Of a stretch of 64,000 nucleotides of DNA, positions 28,635-39,922 are shown one piece after another. A model generated the notes under the pieces. It searched no databases and was not told the DNA's origin. It saw only the letters and a program-made list of their open reading frames with translations. Position 1 is the first letter of the stretch; each line of letters starts with the position of its first letter. The translations under genes and the position numbers were made by a program. This DNA is from Magnetovibrio sp. (lineage in GTDB: Bacteria > Pseudomonadota > Alphaproteobacteria > Rhodospirillales > Magnetovibrionaceae), in the NCBI GenBank assembly GCA_026196495.1, contig JAPHSY010000024.1, positions 7,604 through 71,603 of the forward strand, written 5' to 3'.

Positions 28635-28712
28635 TGGGGTGGCTGATGGGATTTGAACCCACGGCCTCCGGCATCACAAGCCGGCGCTCTAACCAACTGA
28701 GCTACAGCCACC
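28635..28712 (-). tRNA. tRNA-His (GTG), with encoded G-1, C73 and CCA
   Basis: GGTGGCTGTAGCTCAGTTGGTTAGAGCG-CCGGC-TTGTGAT-GCCGG-AGGCC-GTGGGTTCAAATCCCAT-CAGCCAC-C-CCA. Confidence 0.98.
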
Positions 28713-35716: not shown

Positions 35717-36376
35717 TTATGCGACCACGCGCAAACGATTTTGATCCAAGGTGAAGTATTCTTCCACATGATCCAAAGCGCTGTGAACAGATGCTTCAAT
35801 ATCTTGTTCACCTGTGTTGATGATCAGCTCTGGGTTATCTGGTGCTTCATACGGTGCGCTGATGCCTGTGAATTCAGGAATTTCGCCCGCACGTGCACGT
35901 TTATAGAGGCCTTTCGGATCACGGTTTTCGCACACGTCCAAAGAGGCTTCAACATAGACTTCATGGAAGCCTTCACCAATGATCTCACGCGCGATGTCAC
36001 GGTCTTCTTGATATGGTGAAATGAATGCCGTTACGACCAAAGTTCCGGATTGCGCAAACAGAGCTGCCACCTCGGCAATGCGACGAATGTTTTCACTGCG
36101 GTCTTGTGGCGAAAAGCCCAAGTCTTTGTTCAGGCCCGCACGTACATTGTCGCCATCCAGAACATATGCCTGATAACCCAATTGATGCAGTGCTTGTTCC
36201 AAGCCCAGTCCAACTGTGCTTTTGCCAGAACCCGACAAACCAGTTAGCCACAAGACACCACCTTTGTGTCCTGTACGTATAGCTTGATGTTCGGGGCTGA
36301 CACGGTGGTCTACGATGTAGATGTTGCGTGCTTCAGCTTCCTGAGCACGATCTGTTTTGGTGTTTGAATGGCTCAT
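35717..36376 (-). CDS. cysC: Adenylyl-sulfate kinase
   Basis: WLTGLSGSGKST, LDGDNVR.GLN.DLGFS..DR.ENIRR, RDPKGLYKRARAGEI..FTGISAPYEAP. Confidence 0.97.
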   Translation of the reverse strand: MSHSNTKTDRAQEAEARNIYIVDHRVSPEHQAIRTGHKGGVLWLTGLSGSGKSTVGLGLEQALHQLGYQAYVLDGDNVRAGLNKDLGFSPQDRSENIRRIAEVAALFAQSGTLVVTAFISPYQEDRDIAREIIGEGFHEVYVEASLDVCENRDPKGLYKRARAGEIPEFTGISAPYEAPDNPELIINTGEQDIEASVHSALDHVEEYFTLDQNRLRVVA

Positions 36377-37098
36377 TGCCTGTTCTCCGCAAATTTAAAT
36401 TGAAAGGTGTCAAAGGTTGCACTGTGCAACCCGCATTCTGTTTTGGTTTGTCCGGCCCATCGTCCGGCACGGGCATTTTGACCTGTCCCCGTTTTGAGTG
36501 TGCAGGTGGCACAACCAATGGAGCGATAACCTTCTACAACCAATGGATGGCGTGGAATTTGATGAGTTTGAAAAGCATCTTCAATATCTGCCTCAGACCA
36601 AGTGGCGAGTGGGTTCACTTTGATGTGCTGACCTTCGATGTTTACAGTTGGAAGAGCTTGGCGCCCTTCACCGTGAAACTGTTTTCGCCCTGTGATAAGA
36701 ATGTCAAAGTCAGCAGCAGCTTGTGCATGCGGCATGACCTTGCGCACCTGACAGCAAAGGTCCGGGTTGCTTTGATGTAAGTCACCATCAGCATCTGTGC
36801 TGTCAATGAGACCTAAAGGGGCAGAAACAATCCTGACATCCAACAGTCCAAAGTGATCGACCAAACGATTTCGATATTCAATCGTTTCGTCAAACAGCTT
36901 GCCTGTGTCTACAGTGAGCACTGGTGTGCTTGGATCAATCTCTGCGACCAAGCCCAACAGCACGGCTGACTCAGCACCGAATGATGACGATACAGCAACG
37001 CGCGCATCAGCTTCATTAAGAATAACGGCTTTTAGCAATGCCCCACCGTCGAGCTTTCGCCACGTTTTAATCATGGTGTTGATCAATTCGGTTTTCAT
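36373..37098 (-). CDS. cysH: APS/PAPS reductase, [4Fe-4S] (APS-reductase-type) motif set
   Basis: SSFGAES, DTG.LF.ET, CCQVRKV, GYRSIGCATCT, RAGRW, ECGLH. Confidence 0.93.
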   Translation of the reverse strand: MKTELINTMIKTWRKLDGGALLKAVILNEADARVAVSSSFGAESAVLLGLVAEIDPSTPVLTVDTGKLFDETIEYRNRLVDHFGLLDVRIVSAPLGLIDSTDADGDLHQSNPDLCCQVRKVMPHAQAAADFDILITGRKQFHGEGRQALPTVNIEGQHIKVNPLATWSEADIEDAFQTHQIPRHPLVVEGYRSIGCATCTLKTGTGQNARAGRWAGQTKTECGLHSATFDTFQFKFAENRQ

Positions 37099-39164
37099 TC
37101 TGCGGCTCCCGCTAAGAAACTTGGAATGGAGGTCAAGATACGTTCGACTTCTTCATCCGCAGCTTTGGCCCATGCCCGCAATGCTTTGCGGGCTTTGGAT
37201 GCATTACCGCTGCTGTGGGCTTCTGACTTAGCCGCCAATGCGGTGTTTAAAGCACTCAGCAGTTGCTCTGCTTGCGGCCATTGTCCCTGAATATGCGATA
37301 CCAGTGCATCAATGGGTTGGGCTTCGTTTCCACCTGACAATATCAACAGACGTTGAGCCGGTAGTTTCAAAGCTTCATCCACATGAACCAATGCCTGTTC
37401 ACGATTACCAGCCTGCTCTGCGCGCACGATATCTTGGCGTGCAACCCGGGCCAGGTCGGACAAGTGTTCAGCCACAACAGCGCCTGCAGCGCATTCACCT
37501 GTGGATGTTGCCGGTGGGACAAAGATTTTGTCATCGGCAATATCAAAGCGAAGTTTTTCAGCCTCCTCATCGATGTTGCTCAGAATAGGTTCAAGGATCG
37601 ATGCGATCCCGTCCGCACCTAGGCGTTCAGCCCAGGTGCGGACGGTCTCATCGGCCCCCCTGCCAGACTTGATGGCTTCCATGAGAAGCCGAATGGCTTT
37701 CTTTGCCCGTGCCGCAGGAAATACAGGACCCAAAATGCCGTGGTCATTTCCGTCACCACCAAGATGAAGTTGATAATGTGGAGCTGGTTTACCGGCAATT
37801 TTCTTCGCCACACCATGCAAGCCGATGTCGGCAATGTGGTGATGACCGCACGAATTGTGGCACCCAGAAATGCGCAGGCGTACCGATGGCAAACCGTCAA
37901 ATTCAGGTCCTGCATCCAACAAGCTTTCTGCCAATGCATGACTATCGGTGATGCCGATGGCGCAGGTGTAGGTTCCCGGGCAAGACACCAAATTGTCCAA
38001 AGCATGGTCTCGGCCGCTAGCATCCAAGCCGATGTTTTTCACGCCCTCAATAAACGTGCTGACGTTGCTTTTGTTTAAGCCGACGGCAACAATATTTTGA
38101 TCGCGCGTCAGGCGCAATTCAACTGCACCTGCGGCTTGCGCCAGACTGGCAAGCTTGTCCAACTGTGCTGATGTCAACCACCCCAATGGGATTTCAATGC
38201 CGACTGCGGACACGTTTTCGGACTGTTCAACCTCACCTCGCAAACGCAAGTTACCAGCATCTGTATTGTCTTGTTTCCAATCCAGTTCCGCCCAATGACG
38301 ACGTTCAAAATCACGGATCGTATTAAACTGATCATGGACCAAGCGCACAAACTCATCAGCACCAAAGCGTTTAACCAAAAATTTGATGCGTGAACGGTTT
38401 TTGTTTTCACGCGTGGAATGTGCCACATGAACACGCGTGATGGCTTCTTGAACCGCAGGAAGTGCGTCTTCGGTGACGAAGTCAAACACTTCAATGGATT
38501 TGGTCGGATGTGTTCCCAAACCGCCACCGACAACGACACGAAAACCTTTTTCGCCGTTCACTTCGGTGGCAATAAATCCCAGATCATCAATAGAACTTAG
38601 CCCGCAATCTTGGCCACAACCGGAAACCGTGGTTTTGAATTTACGTGGCATGTGTTGCACCAATGAATGGCGCAACCATGTACGGGCCAATTGATCCGCT
38701 GTGGTTGCTGCATCCGTTAACTCAGCACCACAAAACCCAGCTTTTGGGCATGCTGTTATGGCACGAAGAGTATTGCCGGATGCTTCACGGGTGCTCACGC
38801 CACCTAAGTTCAGGCTTTCAATTAACGGTGCCAGTTTCTTCAATTCAATGAAGTACAGTTGGATGCCTTGACGTGTGGTGATGTGGACATCGCCACCAGC
38901 ATGTGAAGCGTTTGCGCTTGCAATGGCACGCGCTTGATCAAAACTTAAGCGACCGCCAGGAAGCTTAAGACGCATCATATGCTCACCCACTTGACGCTGT
39001 TCATAAATACCAAAACGCAAACGGAAGGTTTTCCAGCGATCATCATGCCAGTCACCACCAATATAGTGGGAAATACCTTTGCGAAATTCGGCAATATCAT
39101 TAGTGGACGCCAAAGTTTGATCCGCAAAATCGGACCAGTCCGTGTTGGTGCGTTGATGTGTCAT
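37095..39164 (-). CDS. cysI: Siroheme-[4Fe-4S] sulfite (nitrite/sulfite) reductase hemoprotein with C-terminal extension
   Basis: RLRFGIYEQR, MRLKLPGG, HITTRQGIQL, PRKFK, CPGTYTC, ISGCHNSCGHHH; operon with cysH and cysC; ATG 39164 with AAGGA RBS. Confidence 0.85.
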   Translation of the reverse strand: MTHQRTNTDWSDFADQTLASTNDIAEFRKGISHYIGGDWHDDRWKTFRLRFGIYEQRQVGEHMMRLKLPGGRLSFDQARAIASANASHAGGDVHITTRQGIQLYFIELKKLAPLIESLNLGGVSTREASGNTLRAITACPKAGFCGAELTDAATTADQLARTWLRHSLVQHMPRKFKTTVSGCGQDCGLSSIDDLGFIATEVNGEKGFRVVVGGGLGTHPTKSIEVFDFVTEDALPAVQEAITRVHVAHSTRENKNRSRIKFLVKRFGADEFVRLVHDQFNTIRDFERRHWAELDWKQDNTDAGNLRLRGEVEQSENVSAVGIEIPLGWLTSAQLDKLASLAQAAGAVELRLTRDQNIVAVGLNKSNVSTFIEGVKNIGLDASGRDHALDNLVSCPGTYTCAIGITDSHALAESLLDAGPEFDGLPSVRLRISGCHNSCGHHHIADIGLHGVAKKIAGKPAPHYQLHLGGDGNDHGILGPVFPAARAKKAIRLLMEAIKSGRGADETVRTWAERLGADGIASILEPILSNIDEEAEKLRFDIADDKIFVPPATSTGECAAGAVVAEHLSDLARVARQDIVRAEQAGNREQALVHVDEALKLPAQRLLILSGGNEAQPIDALVSHIQGQWPQAEQLLSALNTALAAKSEAHSSGNASKARKALRAWAKAADEEVERILTSIPSFLAGAAE

Positions 39165-39273
39165 GTCTTCATCCTTTGTGATCAGGGCGCAAAGCCCCGG
39201 TCGTGGGCCGTTCTGTGGCCAACGTAAAAAATCAATAGAAATGGAAAGGTGTTCGGTTAAATCGCAGGCAGCC

Positions 39274-39372
39274 TTAAGCTGCTGCGCAAATACACATCGT
39301 GCACATATGCATTTGGGATGAAGTCGTAAGTCGCCCCATGGGCGCATGGAAAAGTGTATTTAAGTTCGTCAT
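39274..39372 (-). CDS. Putative Met/Cys-rich leader peptide (32 aa) MTNLNTLFHAPMGRLTTSSQMHMCTMCICAAA
   Basis: Manual translation; AAAGGCGGA SD-like element upstream; lies between the riboswitch and cysI in a different frame from cysI. Confidence 0.6.
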   Translation of the reverse strand: MTNLNTLFHAPMGRLTTSSQMHMCTMCICAAA

Positions 39373-39414
39373 GGCATCCGCCTTTGGTCTAATGGACCCG
39401 CGGATACTTTTCCG

Positions 39415-39474
39415 CGGCGCTTTAGCTTCGTTTTGTTAACGCGGTCGCAAGCTGCCCCCTCAAATCACCGCGTT
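39415..39474 (-). ncRNA. SAM-II (SAM-alpha) riboswitch
   Basis: P1 AACGCGGU/ACCGCGUU; conserved GAUUU, UUGC and GCUAAA; pseudoknot AGCUU(G)CG/CGAAGCU; heads a sulfur-assimilation operon. Confidence 0.85.
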
Positions 39475-39607
39475 TCAATTCAGCACCGCCTAAAGTGCTC
39501 AGGCTGAACCAACCTGATGCGCCTATAAAACACACAAAGAATGTTGTTGTCAAATATTAAAACATATTTTTTTGTGCTTTAATTTTAATATACATTTAAA
39601 TTAGTGT

Positions 39608-39922
39608 TTAATTAGAGTCGTTTTCTATTTTTTGTATGATTGGCCCCATCGCACGATAGCGTAAAATGGCCCCAATAATGATCATAATAACCCCAATAAG
39701 TGCCCAAAAAAATGGGTGCACTACTGTTTCTAATCTACTGAAAAAATAGCCTTTTGCGGGGGTAAGGATCGTTGAAAGCAATATATGTGCTGCCCCCAGC
39801 AATGTCAGCAGTATGCCACCTTTAAGCAGTGCCGAAAAAAGCAGGCACAGATTGGGCGATGCAATTTTCATGTCGTGTTCGACACGCTGCCAGTATTCTT
39901 TTGTGTCTGAACTGAGTTTCAT
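39608..39922 (-). CDS. Hypothetical two-TM membrane protein (104 aa)
   Basis: Two hydrophobic stretches; AT-rich region. Confidence 0.5.
   Translation of the reverse strand: MKLSSDTKEYWQRVEHDMKIASPNLCLLFSALLKGGILLTLLGAAHILLSTILTPAKGYFFSRLETVVHPFFWALIGVIMIIIGAILRYRAMGPIIQKIENDSN

Follow-up and report, generated by a model that had tools for sequence, protein, structure and literature searches.

How does a sulfate-assimilation operon make use of a leader that appears to carry two sulfur sensors, and do the two act side by side or one through the other? This question is raised by the cysI-cysH-cysC operon of a Magnetovibrio-like alphaproteobacterium, which lies in a 64,000-nt stretch of Magnetovibrio sp. 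DNA (contig JAPHSY010000024.1; the whole stretch is called the window below). In its leader, all features of which are on the minus strand, an aptamer of the S-adenosylmethionine (SAM) riboswitch class SAM-II is followed by a short open reading frame (ORF) rich in methionine and cysteine codons. A preliminary description had proposed a two-input gate that reads SAM and tRNA charging together. Every element that it listed was found at its place when the minus strand was read, and its proposal stands insofar as a SAM-II aptamer and a conserved Cys/Met ORF are both present; the arrangement, on the other hand, is not a parallel tandem. Most likely the two sensors would work in series, with SAM gating translation of the leader ORF, because the leader AUG occupies the position at which genes regulated by this riboswitch sub-family start. 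We propose a two-stage leader in which SAM turns off translation of the leader ORF and cysI is unmasked by ribosomes that slow down at the Met/Cys codons, a scheme to which we give about an even chance of being right. Its directly supported parts are the aptamer, the conserved ORF, the frame-specific Cys/Met bias and two co-varying complementarities.

The operon and the loci compared

The genes downstream of the leader are those named beforehand, as their Pfam domains confirm:

35717–39164, minus strand: the regulated sulfate-assimilation operon cysI-cysH-cysC (Pfam)
39164–37095, minus strand: cysI, 689 aa, Pfam NIR_SIR and NIR_SIR_ferr
37098–36373, minus strand: cysH, Pfam PAPS_reduct
36376–35717, minus strand: cysC, Pfam APS_kinase

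The same gene order is found in 12 relatives. Loci for comparison came from three sources: a CysI-based scan of species-representative genomes (80 loci, the nearest of them from Magnetovibrio and from Thalassospiraceae metagenome-assembled genomes), a DNA pattern taken from the aptamer core (62 metagenome loci, L081-L142), and CysI homologues of 58-93% identity, which gave 12 further syntenic loci. Among the 20 closest loci of the CysI scan, SAM-II stands ahead of cysI in L001, L002, L008 and L003. The synteny in the 12 further loci runs mobB, a 57-aa ORF, a 104-aa ORF, a gap of ~440 nt and then cysI-cysH-cysC, and in all 12 genome or metagenome records the ~440-nt gap before cysI is without a gene call. 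The closest relative, L143, has a CysI 93% identical to that of the window, and the third codon positions of cysI, 55% identical between the two, served as the neutral reference.

A SAM-II sub-family ahead of sulfate-assimilation and siroheme genes

39402–39481, minus strand: SAM-II aptamer (SAM_alpha, RF00521; Rfam), with P1 CGCGG/CCGCG and the pseudoknot tail at 39422-39416

On the sequence, the aptamer is a real SAM-II. The Rfam scan gave a full-length match to SAM_alpha (RF00521) at 39481-39402, covering model positions 1-79 of 79, at 46.5 bits (E 2.6e-07), above the gathering score of 36; the aptamer span described earlier, 39415-39474, is the core of this match, and the scores of relatives range from 36.5 to 56.3 bits. 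The five pairs of P1 are paired in 100% of cells, two of them with a C-G to U-A compensatory change. The pseudoknot complementarity comprises 7 bp (loop GGC-A-GCUU with tail AAGC-GCC), in columns that are invariant since the search pattern fixed them. Between the window and L143 the aptamer is 97% identical, compared with 55% at neutral sites.

The aptamer belongs to a SAM-II sub-family marked by the tail GCUAAAGCGCC, a hairpin H1 (CCRCGGA...UCCGYGG), a second small hairpin and a Shine-Dalgarno (SD) sequence, with a start codon 42-55 nt past the aptamer core. In 60+ members this SD and start open the regulated gene itself, and first cistrons across the sub-family loci include cysG, a cobA-like methyltransferase, cysH, an OsmC-like protein, metZ, DUF2849 and cysI (in L003). 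The sub-family fronts sulfate-assimilation and siroheme genes rather than met genes (metagenome loci L081-L142; L003 and L019), so that SAM control of a sulfate-assimilation operon, which had been singled out in the window, holds up in that the aptamer is there, but is not unique, being widespread for this aptamer variant. No description of a SAM-II regulon of sulfate-assimilation and siroheme genes was found in the open-access literature, an absence that is not proof.

Two further designs of the first cistron recur in the sub-family. In at least 11 sister loci (L082, L096, L105, L107, L108, L113, L114, L128, L137, L138 and L140) it is an upstream ORF (uORF) of 20-38 codons with ~0 Cys or Met, whose stop overlaps the main start by 4 nt (ATGA/GTGA) or abuts it; the overlapping uORFs look like translational coupling that serves as a relay for the riboswitch. 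In ~20 loci (e.g. L089, at offset 48, L134, L117 and L131) it is a conserved ORF of 56-58 codons, with cysH ~30 nt past its stop. This 57-codon ORF reads MLHPSIE...(variable middle)...EEERSSPVCAAGWAY, conserved at its ends and variable between them; it matched no Pfam or NCBIfam family and could encode a small protein or another regulatory peptide.

Signals between the aptamer and the leader ORF

39398–39417, minus strand: hairpin H1, CCGCGGA-AAAGUA-UCCGCGG, 100% paired across the family, with compensatory changes
39386–39398, minus strand: hairpin H2, GGUC-CAUUA-GACC, which is GGGYCC...GRCC across the family
39374–39385, minus strand: leader SD region AAAGGCGGAUGC, with GCGG invariant in the subgroup (columns G120-G123)
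39274–39372, minus strand: leader ORF of 32 codons, MTNLNTLFHAPMGRLTTSSQMHMCTMCICAAA; 22 distinct homologous ORFs, and comparison with L143

In the subgroup of distinct, Magnetovibrio-like loci, all 22 hold an unannotated ATG ORF of 17-34 codons at an offset of 43-48 nt; in the window the leader AUG has an offset of 43 nt, the position of the riboswitch-controlled gene start in the sub-family. The two small hairpins recognised earlier in the window are H1 and H2, and the SD-like AAAGGCGGA next to them is that of the leader ORF (39385-39377, minus strand).

This expression platform is 91% identical between the window and L143, and H1 shows covariation, with A-U replaced by G-C in 16 sequences and C-G by U-A in one. 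H1 and the pseudoknot strand overlap by two C, the first two bases of the one and the last two of the other. In addition, H1 can pair through its loop and 3' arm (GUAUCCGC, 39407-39400) with the leader SD (GCGGAUGC, 39381-39374), in an 8-bp duplex that ranks 3rd of 56. H1 paired with the SD region of its own locus at -17.7 kcal/mol and with those of other loci at -14.5, and no shuffled assignment reached the own-pair value. This preference for the own partner points to a translational expression platform that would sequester the SD, and in the model the two shared C may couple SAM binding to the freeing of the anti-SD. When the pseudoknot tail was locked versus free in an equilibrium model, accessibility of the leader SD in the window went from 0.17 to 0.05; outside the window this tail-locking model is not counted as support. 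As to the direction of the switch, we infer OFF by analogy with characterised SAM-II OFF switches (PMC9373788).

A conserved leader ORF with Cys and Met codons near its end

From its composition and reading frame, the leader ORF is evidently not a chance ORF. In the window, Met/Cys codons are found at positions 12, 21, 23, 24, 26, 27 and 29, and the stretch from codon 21 to codon 29 is M H M C T M C I C, which agrees with the preliminary description of a 32-codon ORF (39372-39274) with Met or Cys at 6 of these 9 codons. Among the 22 relatives, with initiators excluded, 40 of 539 leader codons are Cys (7.4%) and 55 are Met (10.2%), against a background of 1.18% Cys and 3.04% Met in window ORFs of at least 200 aa. 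Shuffles of the same composition held 15.0 +/- 3.8 Cys (maximum 32) and 6.6 +/- 2.5 Met (maximum 18), and 0 of 20,000 reached the observed 40 / 55. The last 8 codons hold 36 of the 40 Cys, with a C-terminal Cys in 20 of the 22 peptides. Counted by frame (0/+1/+2), ATG triplets number 55/3/1 and stop codons 0/35/3, and the ratio TGT:TGC is 31:9 in the leaders vs 93:100 in the background. Many leaders end ...TGT ATG TGA GCG; in the window TGC stands in place of this TGA, with read-through to a TAA four codons on.

The leader ORFs of the window and L143 agree at 82% of nucleotides (neutral, 55%) and at 20 of 32 amino acids. The leader of L143 has three Cys at identical positions, and its Met go from 4 to 5, though 12 of 32 residues differ; in close pairs, Cys positions were retained in 18 of 23 cases. 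The view that the leader is conserved as an ORF is thus upheld by 22 distinct relatives, with the reservation that L098 and L151 have a 17-codon ORF without any Cys. In the subgroup cysI starts 88-137 nt past the leader stop (109 nt in the window). The leader peptides found no family match in NCBIfam or Pfam.

Cys-rich uORFs also occur before more distant cysI genes (L004-L041); we treated these as chance, as they are few, lie in AT-rich promoter DNA and have no SD and no SAM-II even at E <= 1. Separately, the Cys-less leaders of L098 and L151 (MNAPIHFRMPIPSKPTP) faintly resemble the N-terminus of the riboswitch-controlled CysI of L003 (MNAQTNSRPYTAPKPV...), a weak resemblance which hints that the leader ORF may descend from the 5' end of an ancestral cysI.

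Complementarity between the leader ORF and the cysI ribosome-binding site

39316–39323, minus strand: anti-SD segment CUUCAUCC, codons 17-20 of the leader ORF (minimum-free-energy fold; own-pair duplex tests)
39162–39176, minus strand: cysI initiation region AAGGAUGAAGAC with AUG at 39164-39162, in which GGAUGAAG (39174-39167) pairs with 39323-39316

In the minimum-free-energy fold of the window, an 8-bp duplex joins CUUCAUCC to GGAUGAAG, and the probability that the cysI SD is paired with the leader ORF is 0.67. The anti-SD is identical in L143, with equivalents in L144, L145, L149, L152, L154 and others. At 21 loci, the leader bound its own cysI initiation region at -12.3 kcal/mol and non-cognate ones at -10.6 (P = 0.0005), and for 16 clade representatives, with duplexes counted within 16 nt, the values were -11.75 vs -9.92 kcal/mol (P = 0.0003-0.0006), both statistics ignoring kinship. 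Matched changes are seen in L154, where GUGUUUCUCC pairs with GGAGAAACAC, and in L152, where GUCUUC-C-AUCCUC pairs with GAGGAUGAAGAC; L145 has a 12-bp leader:cysI duplex with one bulge, and L087 has GUUUUC...CCUU with AAGG...GAAAAC. In ~11 of the 16 loci 1-4 codons separate the 3' end of the anti-SD from the first C-terminal Cys codon, so that the segment would lie inside the footprint of a ribosome paused there.

A proposed two-stage model

In the first stage of the scheme, the riboswitch, as elsewhere in the sub-family, would control the next SD and AUG, which here are those of the leader ORF rather than of cysI. With SAM bound, the pseudoknot would take up the two C at the base of H1, and the loop and 3' arm of H1 would be freed to pair with the leader SD, turning leader translation off in the manner of SAM-II OFF switches. 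In the second stage, the cysI ribosome-binding site would be masked by default in the long-range helix CUUCAUCC:GGAUGAAG, which involves the distal half of the leader ORF. Ribosomes translating the leader would open this helix, and their slowing at the Met/Cys codons just downstream would presumably prolong the opening.

Three states would follow. At high SAM, there would be no leader translation, cysI would stay masked and the operon would be OFF, with the untranslated RNA perhaps exposed to Rho; at low SAM with ample Cys and Met, brief unmasking would give intermediate expression; and at low SAM with scarce Cys-tRNA or Met-tRNA, sustained unmasking would give full expression. The model expects that changing CUUCAUCC to CUUGAUCC would make cysI constitutive and that the compensatory change GGAUCAAG would restore control.

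More tentatively, and with the balance tipping somewhat against it, the leader may be a serial three-signal integrator, in which SAM-II licenses a sensory uORF while charging of Met-tRNA and Cys-tRNA tunes sulfite reduction, which would be induced at low SAM only. Such a leader would include the first Met-codon leader peptide, and it would be one branch of a large undescribed SAM-II sub-family with several uORF-relay designs (direct control, ATGA-coupled uORFs, the 57-codon ORF and the sensory uORF).

Weighing the model against its alternatives

Several results weigh against the two-stage scheme. At its first stage, the family mean of leader SD accessibility drops only from 0.25 with the tail free to 0.21 with the tail locked, moving in the wrong direction in several subgroup members, and the H1:SD complementarity comes down to 4-5 invariant bp with a poor rank in most of the subgroup. 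At the second stage, only 14 of 21 leaders favour their own cysI partner, and the permutation tests ignore kinship; in L001, L008 and L102 the cysI SD is predicted to pair with the spacer instead, and in L087 with downstream sequence. A first duplex test of leaders against the cysI SD, with shuffled leaders as the comparison, gave no signal, and was replaced because shuffling retains the pyrimidine bias and RNAduplex permits large loops. Ribosome footprints simulated on each leader codon, Cys and Met included, did not consistently open the cysI SD, as other pyrimidine tracts take over the pairing.

The remaining objections concern the codons, and they also favour another explanation, namely that the leader ORF merely passes on the decision of the riboswitch to cysI, its Cys and Met being by-products of UG-rich RNA structure without any amino-acid sensing. 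The riboswitch-controlled uORFs of the sister loci are free of Cys/Met bias, and a relay role alone could account for the existence of the leader ORF, as in the ppe2 uORF of Mycobacterium tuberculosis, a pure relay (PMC11260477). Besides the two leaders that lack Cys altogether, several hold a single one. The expectation that Met and Cys would be conserved while other residues drift is borne out for Cys and fails for Met, the positions of which turn over; taken together in close pairs, Cys and Met were retained in 37 of 61 cases and other residues in 106 of 202, a difference that is not significant. Frame +1 matches frame 0 in Cys content, a result of ATGTGT strings, and in the window the Met/Cys stretch folds into an 11-bp hairpin. 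What a pure relay would not lead one to expect is the confinement of ATG to one frame, the 6-fold (Cys) and 3-fold (Met) excess over the proteome background, the clustering of Cys towards the stop at positions kept while 12 of 32 residues changed, and the preference for TGT; moreover, the operon makes sulfide for Cys and Met, a textbook setting for end-product codons. We regard a relay without sensing as unlikely, though still worth serious consideration.

A further alternative places control in the spacer between the leader stop and cysI, which holds the following features:

39263–39286, minus strand: hairpin HS over the leader stop (UAA at 39276-39274), -14.7 kcal/mol, z -2.1
39225–39262, minus strand: G-poor, pyrimidine-rich unstructured tract, G making up 0.07 of 40 nt, at the 1.2th percentile for the window
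39183–39223, minus strand: GC-rich hairpins HA (39223-39203) and HB (39199-39183), from the fold, preceding the cysI SD

The hairpin over the leader stop (39286-39263), the pyrimidine-rich tract (39262-39225) and the hairpin adjoining the cysI SD (39199-39183) had all been noted before and were recovered. In 22 of 22 relatives a hairpin starts within -12 to +5 of the leader stop (z < -1 in 13 of the 22), and HS is kept in L143 with its register shifted. The spacer as a whole is 70% identical between the window and L143, which has an HB-like hairpin, as do all relatives, and lacks both HA and the U-run; the U-run (39231-39226) and HA were accordingly rejected as essential parts. On the minus strand between 38900 and 39900 there is no intrinsic terminator-like site, and in most relatives no U-run follows the stop hairpin. 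Classical terminator-based attenuation is not supported, given this result and the dispensability of the U-run and HA in L143.

The G-poor tract could serve Rho as a loading site, or act as a second reservoir of anti-SD sequence. The first possibility underlies an explanation modelled on tnaC, a precedent for Rho-dependent leader attenuation: a ribosome that pauses at the final Cys/Met codons or on the stop would keep Rho off the tract, and high SAM would lead to termination before cysI, perhaps in conjunction with SD unmasking as at toiL-topAI. In keeping with this, in 6 of 9 relatives the tract ranks no higher than the 5th percentile, beginning +1 to +34 after the stop; its G-poor character is kept in L143 despite a spacer identity of only 70%; there is no intrinsic terminator; and the Cys codons lie 2-9 codons from the stop. 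Interplay of uORFs with Rho has reported precedents (PMC12121999, PMC12360218). The tract is, on the other hand, unremarkable in L002, L122 and L132 (12th-37th percentile), and in most loci the stop is separated from it by a structured hairpin. With 6 of 9 relatives only, a universal Rho site was rejected, and we keep Rho-dependent attenuation as an alternative that is rather improbable.

It is more doubtful still that the ORF is untranslated or functionless and that the riboswitch acts on cysI from a distance, for instance with its SD as a standby site, or through mRNA stability. At Sinorhizobium meliloti metA the riboswitch SD is needed for initiation 74 nt downstream while the first AUG, AUG1, goes unused (PMC9373788), the leader SD here (AAGGCGGA) is imperfect, and no gene caller annotated the ORF; against this stand the ATG and the 17-34-codon open frame that every one of the 22 loci retains, the 35 stops that frame +1 has over the same nucleotides, the frame-specificity of ATG, and the strong SD of cysI itself, 208 nt away.

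Finally, trp-type attenuation, with alternative hairpins and an intrinsic terminator set by the position of the ribosome on the Met/Cys codons and the riboswitch acting separately on transcription, can draw on the GC-rich stop hairpin followed by AUUUAA, on somewhat U-rich sequence after this hairpin in L002 and L087 and on cysS of Rhodobacterales, which is preceded by a Cys-Cys uORF that has a terminator (PMC8632094), but we consider it hardly credible given that the leader strand has no terminator-like site, that most relatives have no U-tract past the hairpin, that the downstream U-run has no preceding stem and is absent from L143, and that no hairpin with a U-run follows the aptamer.

One feature of the spacer stands apart from these explanations. 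In L087, L150, L002, L122, L132, L153, L127, L147, L149 and L151, the last hairpin before the cysI SD is the near-palindromic GGGACRCGUGYGUCC, the 3' arm of which (GUCCUU/GUCCUG) is complementary to the SD (AAGGAU); the window version, CGGGGCUUUGCGCCCUG, differs. This hairpin may be a second pair of anti-SD and mimic, or a site for protein binding at the DNA level.

Promoter, 5' hairpin and surroundings of the leader

39525–39553, minus strand: putative sigma-70-type promoter, TTGACA at 39553-39548, a 17-nt spacer, and TTTTAT at 39530-39525 after a conserved TGTG
39497–39518, minus strand: 5'-proximal stem-loop CAGG...CCUG (fold prediction), upstream of the aptamer

The TTGACA reported earlier at 39548-39553 is present, and TTGACA-N17-TGTGTTTTAT is kept in the relatives examined, including all 11 loci compared for the promoter region; the promoter stretch is 94% identical between the window and L143 (neutral sites, 55%). 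The promoter scan did not call this site, since position 2 of the -10 candidate TTTTAT is not A. Relatives have the 5' stem as well, and in L001 and L146 its CAGG/CCUG is replaced by CGGG/CCCG. From their sequence, the TGTGTTTTAT string and the stem-loop look like a promoter followed by a conserved 5' hairpin, and the latter may be a stabiliser of the 5' end.

The start of cysI deserves attention. Its frame is open upstream to an ATG at 39347, within the leader ORF, which would give a 750-aa ORF (39347-37095, minus strand), and several relatives have TTG or GTG in open frames upstream of the conserved cysI start, so gene callers could misplace it. The conserved SD and N-terminus point to 39164 as the likely start. 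A leader ORF combined with an open upstream frame can mislead the annotation of the cysI start codon. At the other end of the protein, the C-terminal 155 aa of CysI (37095-37562) matched no Pfam or NCBIfam family. Among relatives there are also CysI-CysH fusions of 924-935 aa with PF01507 (P0052, P0054, P0059 and P0068).

Upstream of the cys leader, a 104-aa ORF (39608-39922, minus strand) and, on the other strand, a 57-aa ORF keep synteny with mobB in the relatives whose DNA extends there (L144-L154), with an OmpA-family gene in place of mobB in L154; the 104-aa ORF had no family match in NCBIfam or Pfam. A tRNA gene at 28638-28711 (minus strand; Rfam tRNA, 74.1 bits) is unrelated to the leader.

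Comparison with known systems

Both halves of the leader have precedents, and no description of their combination was found. We met no account, in the open-access literature, of a SAM-II riboswitch in control of sulfate-assimilation genes, of leaders with Met codons or of uORFs with Cys/Met codons placed under a SAM riboswitch, in agreement with the earlier remark that no described example of the pairing on a sulfate-assimilation operon was known, and with the proviso that absence is not proof.

A related logic is that of the Salmonella mgtA leader, where a Mg2+ riboswitch and a proline-codon ORF, mgtL, are reportedly combined, with Rho-dependent termination as the output (Park, Cromie and Groisman are said to have described it in 2010). 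This leader likewise joins a ligand-sensing RNA with an ORF reporting amino-acid supply, so that two signals are integrated, and differs in its signals and phylum; mgtL is said to lie within the alternative structures of the riboswitch, whereas the present ORF starts from the SD and AUG that belong to the riboswitch itself, a serial arrangement. A SAM riboswitch before a sulfate-assimilation operon was reportedly found in Bacillus subtilis by Grundy and Henkin in 1998, in the S-box (SAM-I) leader of the cysH operon; it is said to use another aptamer class and transcription termination, and to have no leader ORF.

The SAM-II leaders of metA, metX and metZ (Corbino et al. 2005, PMC1273637) share with the present one the full-length match, P1, the loop:tail complementarity of a predicted H-type pseudoknot and the GAUUUGA/GCUUGC/GCUAAAG blocks, as well as an alphaproteobacterial host and a sulfur/methionine gene context. 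The leader studied here differs from them in that its SD lies outside the pseudoknot strand, because the tail of the sub-family is AAAGCGCC, and in having two more hairpins, H1 and H2, ahead of the SD. It also serves another regulon (cysI, cysH, cysG, cobA-like genes and DUF2849), with a sensory-looking uORF as the first cistron; Corbino et al. make no mention of sulfate, sulfite or cys genes (PMC1273637). Another comparison is S. meliloti metA (PMC9373788), where the AUG after the riboswitch SD is likewise not the start of the enzyme, and the real start lies tens to hundreds of nt downstream. There, AUG1 is in frame with metA and unused, a terminator separates AUG1 from AUG2, and AUG2 has no functional ribosome-binding site, in contrast to the separate, closed and conserved ORF found here and to a cysI with a strong SD of its own.

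A riboswitch-controlled short uORF upstream of a main gene is known from M. tuberculosis ppe2, where a translational OFF B12 riboswitch acts on a short uORF whose translation is needed for the main gene (PMC11260477). That system differs from ours in its ligand, B12, in close-range termination-reinitiation and in having no end-product codon bias, compared with a 109-nt spacer and an SD belonging to cysI here. The uORF stop neither overlaps nor abuts the cysI start in the window or in the subgroup, overlap or abutment being a feature of the at least 11 sister loci.

For the Cys codons, the nearest parallels are the polycysteine leaderless small ORFs of mycobacteria, where a stalled ribosome is proposed to block a duplex that sequesters a downstream ribosome-binding site (Canestrari et al., bioRxiv 10.1101/834739); Cys leaders have also been predicted in Actinobacteria (PMC1262725). 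The mycobacterial ORFs share with ours the Cys codons in a short uORF of cysteine/sulfur operons and the proposed geometry by which a ribosome-binding site would be unmasked (10.1101/834739). They differ in being leaderless, with at least 2 consecutive Cys, in another phylum and without a riboswitch, whereas the present leaders have 1-4 Cys interleaved with Met near the stop, an initiation that appears SD-dependent and a SAM aptamer upstream. Within the alphaproteobacteria, uORFC-8-2 before cysS in Rhodobacterales has conserved Cys codons and was proposed to sense Cys-tRNA charging (PMC8632094); unlike the leader ORF described here, it has tandem Cys codons 14-15, an intrinsic terminator with a U-run, cysS as its target, no riboswitch and no Met enrichment.

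Significance

Riboswitches and leader-peptide attenuators are usually treated as alternatives, and at this operon one would be plugged into the other. If confirmed, the cysI leader would be a compact natural case of serial integration on a single mRNA, with SAM read first and aminoacyl-tRNA supply second. It would also show how a uORF relay under riboswitch control can acquire a second input. The finding also flags a class of unannotated regulatory ORFs, a gene call being present at this place in 0 of the 12 genome or metagenome records. For the wider family, confirmation would mean that the SAM-II regulon extends from methionine genes to sulfate reduction and siroheme synthesis.

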